Shown in pieces: positions 9,737-9,776 of a stretch of DNA of 64,000 nt; position 1 is the first letter of the stretch, and each line of letters starts with the position of its first letter. The notes below the pieces were generated by a model. It was not told where the DNA came from, did no database searches, and was given only the letters and a program-made list of their open reading frames with translations. The position numbers were made by a program, and so were the translations under genes. This DNA is from Escherichia coli. Its GTDB lineage: Bacteria; Pseudomonadota; Gammaproteobacteria; Enterobacterales; Enterobacteriaceae. The stretch lies in assembly GCF_003018115.1 (NCBI RefSeq), contig NZ_CP027457.1. One strand, 5' to 3'.

Positions 9737-9776
9737 CCCTGCTAATTTTGCTAATGGTTAGCAAAATTAGCAGGGT
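9737..9776 (-). terminator. Perfect palindromic hairpin downstream of the 620-aa gene (putative terminator)
   Basis: CCCTGCTAATTTTGCTA-atgg-TAGCAAAATTAGCAGGG, 17-bp perfect stem, about 40 bp past the stop at 9815. Confidence 0.45.

Follow-up and report, generated by a model that had tools for sequence, protein, structure and literature searches.

In the satellite phage P4, the ori and crr regions carry type I iterons that are bound by the alpha primase-helicase, and in the iteron plasmids pSC101, F, P1 and R6K inverted iteron repeats at the rep promoters serve autoregulation. In the satellites termed phage-inducible chromosomal islands (PICIs), iteron origins adjoin the replication gene (PMC6092414). 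For PICMI satellites (phage-inducible chromosomal minimalist islands), AlpA was reported to be needed for excision and to be necessary and sufficient for activation, and a DUF3987 gene was reported to be needed for replication; no origin is described in that work (PMC10803314). DUF3987 proteins are helicases with 5'-3' polarity (PMC11724360). The subject of the present study is a perfect palindrome at positions 9737-9775 of a 64,000-nucleotide stretch of Escherichia coli DNA (contig NZ_CP027457.1; the whole stretch is termed the window). The window is 100% identical to the chromosome of E. coli strain 2014C-4135 and represents a chromosomal island with the backbone order integrase (int), DUF3987 helicase, AlpA, a gene encoding a protein of 620 amino acids (the 620-aa gene), the palindrome, a 1.3-kb gap without open reading frames (ORFs), and a gene for a putative HUH-type protein of the Gp2/YagK-YfjJ family. 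The same four-fold CTGCTA palindrome was found to adjoin the helicase and excision genes of related islands in many proteobacteria. Because of this, the palindrome is considered most likely, with a probability of roughly 0.55, to be a DNA-level cis element of the island replication module, acting as an initiator-binding site, an origin or an origin-linked operator. Such a site fits the hairpins with short repeats used by HUH systems and the iteron origins that satellites have beside the replication gene (PMC6092414).

The two arms of the palindrome, CCCTGCTAATTTTGCTAA (9737-9754) and TTAGCAAAATTAGCAGGG (9758-9775), are each 18 nt long and 100% complementary, and together with the 3-nt centre TGG they make up an element of 39 nt (18+3+18) that has no strand of its own. 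An earlier sequence-only reading of this DNA had described a 17-bp stem with a 4-nt loop at 9737-9776; the perfect inverted repeat was borne out, and the dimensions were corrected to those given here or, drawn differently, to 17 bp with a 5-nt loop. Beyond a one-base C bulge, ATA/TAT pairs (9733-9735 with 9777-9779) extend the stem to 9733-9779. Each arm consists of two (C)TGCTA(C/A) sequences, and the palindrome as a whole thus holds four 7-nt units at a 9-nt phase, two of them direct and two inverted. On the plus strand these are CTGCTAA (unit 1, 9739-9745; family consensus CTGCTAC) and, 9 nt after it, TTGCTAA (unit 2, 9748-9754); on the minus strand they are unit 3 (9758-9764; TTAGCAA on the plus strand), which is unit 2 inverted, and unit 4 (9767-9773; TTAGCAG on the plus strand), which is unit 1 inverted.

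The palindrome lies downstream of the 620-aa gene, 39 nt past the stop codon of this minus-strand ORF. As the sequence-only reading had stated, its stem is AT-rich; 7 of the 18 pairs are G-C. It is the longest perfect short-loop inverted repeat in the window. For comparison, a classical bidirectional intrinsic terminator at 13611-13646, located between the convergent DUF3987 and integrase genes, has a GC-rich stem, TGCAATGCCAG...CTGGCATTGCA, followed by TTTATTTTT, and looks quite different. No further copies of the arm sequence were present in the window, even at three mismatches, and two matches occurred in 0 of 100 shuffles, which places the repeat well beyond chance. Folding of the palindrome as single-stranded DNA gave -19.2 and -19.6 kcal/mol for the two strands (z = -7.6 and -8.8 against shuffles), while folding as RNA in a 131-nt context gave -36.1 kcal/mol (z = -3.5). 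As the palindrome is perfect, an RNA hairpin is possible in a transcript of either strand. The adjoining 100 nt (9637-9736) are 74% A+T, compared with roughly 60-70% locally in the window. A search of 7500-12500 against Rfam in evalue mode returned only a chance microRNA match of 21 bits against a gathering score of 49, and a full-text literature search with the palindrome sequences returned unrelated papers only, with no description of the palindrome among them.

The genomic surroundings of the palindrome were explored by a scan that ignored neighbouring genes. The pattern GCTA-N4-K-GCTA-N4-6-TAGC-M-N4-TAGC was searched in one genome per species across 100,044 species, and the ORFs of all loci found were then searched with profiles of five island proteins. 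The scan returned 115 loci, where about 52 were expected by chance from the size of the pattern. A homologue of DUF3987, AlpA, Gp2 or the 620-aa protein was encoded within 2.5 kb of 54 of these loci, and the other 61 correspond approximately to the chance number. The 54 loci were from Gamma- and Betaproteobacteria, mostly lacked a 620-aa homologue, and were found in Enterobacter, Serratia, Providencia, Edwardsiella, Xenorhabdus, Citrobacter, Pseudomonas, Halomonas and its relatives, Marinobacter, Shewanella, Rhodoferax, Variovorax and other hosts. The nearest module gene was DUF3987 in 29 loci, often within 150 nt, AlpA in 14, the 620-aa gene in seven and Gp2 in four. The palindrome was located 6-25 nt before the DUF3987 start or 70-230 nt upstream of alpA, and at other loci between divergent alpA and DUF3987 genes, or 8-120 nt after the DUF3987 stop, often then followed by Gp2. 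The nearest-gene counts and these positions indicate that the palindrome is part of the AlpA/DUF3987/Gp2 module. Members of the enterobacterial branch have the 620-aa gene between the palindrome and alpA, and in the window the DUF3987 gene is 2.2 kb from the palindrome with alpA and the 620-aa gene in between. This linkage, obtained without regard to context, together with the conserved pairing and motif described below, supports the protein-binding site that the sequence-only reading had proposed as one possibility.

The same positions can be set against a purely regulatory explanation, in which an AlpA-type helix-turn-helix protein (Xis/Vis/TorI-like) or another regulator would bind the repeats as an operator or a recombination-directionality site, controlling transcription of the alpA-DUF3987(-Gp2) genes or shaping an excision complex, with no role in replication. 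Palindromic repeats are typical of operators, the 70-230 nt upstream of alpA that hold the palindrome in the loci where alpA is nearest are a promoter region, the loci with the palindrome ending just before the DUF3987 start would suit an operator too, and the activating role of AlpA in PICMI satellites (PMC10803314) makes a site of this kind plausible. In at least 11 loci, however, the palindrome lies just past the DUF3987 stop, and between it and alpA there is a 1.8-kb gene in the enterobacterial branch. When the 11 loci with 3.5 kb of sequence on both sides were inspected, DUF3987 was present in 10 and Gp2 in 10, but AlpA was missing nearby in four. Moreover, an excision site would be expected beside an attachment (att) site, whereas the palindrome is ~ 5 kb from the integrase-proximal end of the island; the element, at 34-44 bp, is longer than usual operators; and the spacers between the repeats are 81% complementary, which an operator of four half-sites would not need. 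A regulatory site with no replication function is thus judged unlikely. A Pseudomonas aeruginosa 'AlpA binding element' (GGGACG) was considered as a possible parallel and rejected, being an antiterminator site (the protein has a fold like phage 21 Q) of only 6 bp that is unlike the palindrome.

A replication-linked site can instead be compared with the described origins. Like those of PICIs and of the Staphylococcus aureus pathogenicity islands (SaPIs), the palindrome consists of short repeats beside the replication gene of an island with an int-alpA-replicase backbone, and, as is often the case for PICI origins, it is immediately 3' of that gene in about 11 loci (PMC6092414). The palindrome differs in that its two repeat sets are inverted and abutting (0-6 nt apart), forming one perfect palindrome with a modest AT-rich flank, in that it is found as often 5' of alpA or DUF3987 as 3', and in that its function is proposed here on the basis of sequence. 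Phage P4, too, is an integrative satellite; it encodes int, a protein of the Vis/AlpA kind and a helicase-type replicase, which reads short repeats in both orientations. However, the P4 motif is TGTTCACC, the P4 repeats are spread over two regions with no single hairpin palindrome, and DUF3987 is not the P4 alpha protein. With the iteron plasmids the family shares an initiator-motif palindrome at the start of a replication gene, as in the loci where it ends 6-25 nt before DUF3987. In those plasmids the origin additionally holds a separate array of direct iterons. The 54 loci showed no second array of this kind, and only five of them had even one extra in-phase repeat.

The nature of the constraint on the palindrome was studied using the 54 module-linked loci. 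At the spacer positions left free by the search pattern (four per arm), the two arms were complementary in 174 of 216 cases, compared with 25% by chance. An alignment of the 49 distinct sequences gave a covariation score of 0.326, against 0.121 +/- 0.011 in shuffles (0 of 500 reached the observed value) and 0.085-0.124 in slid controls, and at each of pairs 11-14 between 15 and 22 sequences were changed on both sides. Conservation extended to bases outside the pattern: the base at -2 was C in 75% of loci and the base at -1 was T in 73%, giving CTGCTA. A G·T wobble was recorded in only 11 of the 216 cases, with no excess among mismatches, and this rarity fits a constraint at the DNA level on both strands, not an RNA stem. 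The centre was 4 nt long in 46 of the 54 loci, and 5-6 nt in the others and in E. coli; in our view a variable centre is more easily tolerated by a loop than by a fixed protein spacing. With respect to a conserved nick motif, the centre is 0-6 nt and variable, and none was seen in the flanks by eye, no systematic motif search having been made.

These data bear directly on an RNA-level explanation, in which the palindrome would be a weak intrinsic terminator, a 3'-exonuclease barrier or, with its 18-22 perfect pairs, an RNase III target that separates the transcript of the 620-aa gene from the Gp2 region. The sequence-only reading had likewise raised a terminator. Consistent with this, the palindrome follows shortly after the stop codon in the window and at all loci with a 620-aa homologue, where the 3' end of the unit would be, a simple terminator scan picks it up on the minus strand, and, as described above, it folds into a stable hairpin as RNA. 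In contrast to intrinsic terminators, which are similar in that the window shows a stable stem-loop just past a stop codon, the palindrome has no proper U-tract, a perfect AT-rich stem of 18-22 bp and a conserved motif, and it is mostly upstream of genes. Its poor tail (GTATTATCTA / GUAUUAUCUA) passes only a lenient 5-of-8 T rule, and there is no T-tract in the sister island or in the remote homologues described below. Across the family, at least five T in eight beside the stem were found in 16 of 54 loci, against 14% at random positions, and six in eight in only six loci; 38 members (70%) were without even five T in eight on either side. Most members are upstream of alpA or DUF3987 in loci that have no 620-aa gene. 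In addition, the CTGCTAC motif is kept from Enterobacterales to Burkholderiales, which is not expected of a terminator, the G·U wobble that is common in RNA stems is not enriched, and no Rfam family was matched. A dedicated RNA element is accordingly regarded as improbable. Since the 620-aa transcript would fold the hairpin in the window, a degree of termination, or of protection of the 3' end, may be a by-product, but termination of this transcript would be at most incidental. As a caution, a hairpin that follows a stop codon need not be annotated as a terminator.

The 620-aa gene itself (9815-11677, minus strand; 611 amino acids from the RefSeq start) is divergent from alpA and encodes an all-alpha, TPR-like protein for which no match was found in PADLOC, PHROGs, NCBIfam or Pfam. 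An exhaustive profile search identified full-length homologues at 20-34% identity, and the loci of six of these (28-34% identity) were examined. In all six, the gene is divergent from an alpA-DUF3987(-YagK/YfjJ) module and thus counts as part of the core shared by the enterobacterial branch, not as cargo. A palindrome of the CTGCTACAGCTGCTAC..GTAGCAGCTGTAGCAG type follows the stop codon of the homologue within 11-70 nt in all six loci, and at 11-43 nt where the downstream sequence could be read to its end, examples being TCTGCTACAGCTGCTAC-GT-GTAGCAGCTGTAGCAGA, CCCCTGCTACAGCTGCTA-AGTG-TAGCAGCTGTAGCAGAGG and, as arm pairs, TGCTACACATGCTACA/TGTAGCATGTGTAGCA and CCCCTCTGCTACACCTGCTACA/TGTAGCAGGTGTAGCAGAGGGG. 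Both the pairing and the motif are therefore kept at 28-34% protein identity, with two 9-nt (C)TGCTA(C) repeats per arm, and the retention of the motif over such a distance argues against a terminator, which would not retain its sequence. The gene content of the remote relatives turns variable just past the palindrome. To this extent the suggestion of a recombination site at a cargo boundary was apt, but the 620-aa gene belongs to the core, the integrase end lies ~ 5 kb away, and the window holds no second copy. The idea of an att or recombination site was rejected on the grounds that there is no second copy, no tRNA gene in the window and no att-like direct repeat in the relative L016.

The short-read (Logan) contigs of five remote relatives (L012, L013, L015, L017 and L018) break off within the palindrome, at 48-87 nt past the gene. 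Perfect palindromes most likely cause such breaks as an artefact of assembly, and elements of this kind will thereby be hidden in metagenome assemblies.

Within E. coli, the palindrome was found in 74 of 5426 complete genomes, at one place per genome and always in the same context; the 'two places' per genome reported in this count are the two strands of one palindrome. It was absent from plasmids; all that the plasmid collection yielded were chance matches of 27 nt in plasmids of Bacillus. Across the 74 genomes, none of the 36 stem positions of 9737-9775 varied, while identity over the surrounding 221 nt fell to as low as 87.6%. Islands of the E2348/69 type carry ATCCCCC...GGGGGAT, in which A to C and T to G changes on opposite sides together with an inserted G turn the 18 pairs and bulge into 22 perfect pairs. 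In four of the 74 genomes (for example L005, S1-ESP-03-A, at about 6030-6040), the loop was inverted from TGG to CCA with both arms intact, and this is read as the footprint of hairpin-mediated template switching or arm-to-arm recombination. A sister island (L007; 72% amino acid identity in the neighbouring protein) is present in 159 genomes. Its palindrome, CCCTGCTATTGTTGCTAG-TCGG-CTAGCAACAATAGCAG(A)GGG, is located 43 nt past the stop codon; at three positions of its stem both partners are replaced, against a flank identity of only about 60%. An alpA-DUF3987 module of this type was counted in 230 genomes, which is approximately the 74 window-type plus the 159 sister-type palindromes, and in E. 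coli the palindrome was always accompanied by intact int, alpA and DUF3987 genes. Looking for the same palindrome in related islands, as the sequence-only reading had suggested, therefore finds it conserved in the sister island, at the remote homologue loci and at the 54 module-linked loci.

The single location per genome can be contrasted with repetitive extragenic palindromic (REP) elements, which resemble the palindrome in being hairpins with an HUH-family protein, the REP-associated tyrosine transposase (RAYT), nearby. REP elements are dispersed in hundreds of copies, whereas the island palindrome is single-copy and absent elsewhere in the genome. A dispersed repeat of the REP or miniature inverted-repeat transposable element (MITE) kind was rejected, since the window has a single copy and each of the 74 genomes has the palindrome at one place only. 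A target site for insertion sequences (IS) was also rejected: an IS2 in strain NCTC86 (L135, about 880-2210) lies in the gap more than 400 nt off the palindrome, and an IS1 in SW070917 (L136, 2738-3435) lies inside the 620-aa gene and leaves the palindrome untouched. Degradation is evident in many of these islands, which contain pseudogenes and IS insertions.

Several observations weigh against a replication site. The K-12 island CP4-57, with the gene order alpA-yfjI(DUF3987)-yfjJ, was inspected and is without a GCTA palindrome; not all DUF3987 islands, therefore, have the element. The GCTA cores of the scan set are invariant by ascertainment. An AT-rich unwinding region, to be expected of an origin, was looked for and is only weakly developed: the flanks are at +0.04 to +0.07 A+T over the locus mean across the family, and the two sets of repeats are not separated by an AT-rich spacer. 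The assignment of Gp2 as an HUH protein rests on motifs, a structural model of medium confidence (predicted local distance difference test score, pLDDT, of 69) and weak fold matches. Long perfect palindromes can also homogenise their own arms by template switching, and, as the TGG to CCA inversion shows such events, changes on both sides cannot be taken as evidence of selection alone. A symmetric protein dimer would impose symmetric changes as well, and recognition of either a hairpin or a duplex would fit the data. Finally, the repeats in E. coli are GCTAA, GCTAT and GCTAG rather than GCTAC and the centre is 5-6 nt rather than 4, so the E. coli versions could be decaying relics.

This last point may be carried further, to a palindrome that has no present function in E. 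coli and persists by the intrastrand templating repair of perfect palindromes. Apart from the departure from the family consensus in the repeats and the centre, the loop inversion, as a self-templated event, and the degraded state of many islands are compatible with such a relic. It is nevertheless very improbable: the 36 stem positions are unchanged in 74 genomes against the divergence of the surrounding 221 nt, intact int, alpA and DUF3987 genes accompany the palindrome without exception, pairing is preserved between two island types that differ at three stem positions, and the IS insertions in relatives spare it.

If the palindrome is a site of the replication module, the proteins of the island offer two candidates for its recognition. 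The DUF3987 protein (12010-13539, plus strand), a helicase-type replication protein, is encoded by the gene that most frequently was the closest to the palindrome in the family. It matches the PHROG 'DNA helicase' with an E value of 1e-39; no match was found in a sequence search of the PDB, and a single-protein query of viral contigs found no relatives. The second candidate partner is the inovirus-type Gp2/YagK-YfjJ protein (7907-8500, minus strand). The motifs RxDL, YxWxxE, HuH and YLxK are kept in 48 diverse members of its family, residues H87, H89, Y157 and K160 are invariant in a nine-member alignment, and Pfam REP_ORF2-G2P was matched by nine of the nine Gp2/YagK-YfjJ proteins tested. A profile of the family gave one marginal match to PDB sequences, a viral Rep protein (E 0.068). 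The highest-probability PDB matches of the structural model were to the origin-binding/HUH domain of the adeno-associated virus (AAV) Rep protein, with weak scores (E about 1e-2, template-modelling score about 0.4), and a RAYT transposase bound to a REP hairpin (4er8) was also among the weak fold matches. Since the HuH and YLxK motifs are hallmarks of such enzymes, this uncharacterised E. coli family looks like HUH Rep-type endonucleases, a resemblance drawn from motifs and a predicted model.

The terminal repeat of the parvovirus AAV is similar to the island palindrome in being a hairpin palindrome with short direct repeats, for which the same element supplies an HUH-type protein and a helicase (Rep68/78). 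AAV is a linear single-stranded DNA virus, in contrast to a bacterial chromosomal island; the HUH and helicase functions are separate genes in the island; the island repeats are 9 nt apart, unlike the contiguous AAV tetramers; and the fold match of Gp2 to AAV Rep is weak. More tentatively, then, the CTGCTAC palindrome might be an undescribed origin shared by a large family of int-AlpA-DUF3987-Gp2 islands and satellites in Gamma- and Betaproteobacteria, including those of enteropathogenic E. coli E2348/69 and of O104:H4 E. coli, with an extruded hairpin read by an HUH nuclease and a separate DUF3987 helicase, as a bacterial counterpart of the parvoviral hairpin-Rep system. This extended proposal is possible but doubtful.

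For the replication-module site as such, we infer protein binding, the choice of binding protein and the initiation of replication along the following lines. Excision of the island mediated by AlpA and Int would come first. The DUF3987 helicase, the HUH-type Gp2/YagK-YfjJ protein, or both, would then recognise the four units, either as duplex or in the hairpin or cruciform that the palindrome could extrude, and the bound protein or proteins would open or nick nearby DNA, so that the excised circle begins to replicate. At loci where alpA or DUF3987 has its promoter or start directly beside the palindrome, this binding would also make these genes autoregulated.

Islands with int, AlpA and DUF3987 are very common in proteobacteria and carry virulence, defence and metabolic cargo, and the conserved 34-44-bp palindrome, being easily searched, would provide a concrete candidate origin for them. 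It may also serve as a landmark by which the island core can be delimited in genome annotation, and as an entry point to the question of HUH nuclease activity in the 'Gp2' proteins of the YagK/YfjJ type, which are poorly understood.

The remaining backbone genes of the window are the tyrosine integrase of the island (13709-14926, minus strand) and alpA (11733-12038, plus strand), which encodes a small helix-turn-helix protein of the AlpA family (PF05930), an excision and regulatory factor of such islands (PMC10803314). Beyond the Gp2 gene, the window holds zinc-ribbon genes and then cargo, comprising lactate utilisation and CdiA/CdiB genes. In some relatives, a gene for a 786-aa 'TOTE conflict system archaeo-eukaryotic primase' follows Gp2 (L003, 1704-4064; L006, 1677-4037); its place is taken by a pseudogene fragment in other relatives and by the zinc-ribbon genes in the window.

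Between the palindrome and the Gp2 gene lies an AT-rich stretch (8501-9736, ~ 1.24 kb) that contains no ORF longer than 51 amino acids; its A+T content is about 66%, and its plus strand is rich in A. Six E. coli relatives retain it at 88% mean identity, with several indels of 6-85 nt. When compared with the sister island, identity exceeds 90% only in the ~ 450 nt adjoining the Gp2 start and is about 60% in the remainder. The stretch might represent a noncoding RNA, or else the promoter region or a long leader of Gp2. It includes a second palindrome, TATTACCTCATTAC-A-GTAATAGGGTAATT, 132-160 nt upstream of the Gp2 start (8632-8660 in the window; 8896-8924 in L007), which is imperfect in the window, has 12+12 perfect pairs in the sister island and has one mismatch in E2348/69. 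This second palindrome may be a promoter or operator of Gp2.

The islands adjoin ycdU and clpA (14927-15300 in the window; 11504-11821 in L003; 1943-2638 in L007). Although the tRNA genes serX and serW lie beside ycdU and clpA, ARAGORN showed no tRNA gene in the window or in L007. In L003, two 'RtT sRNA' repeats are annotated by RefSeq between int and ycdU. In the remote relative L016 (8662-10900), the island core lies about 2 kb from a CRISPR array with a 61-nt period and the cas1/cas2 genes of the host.

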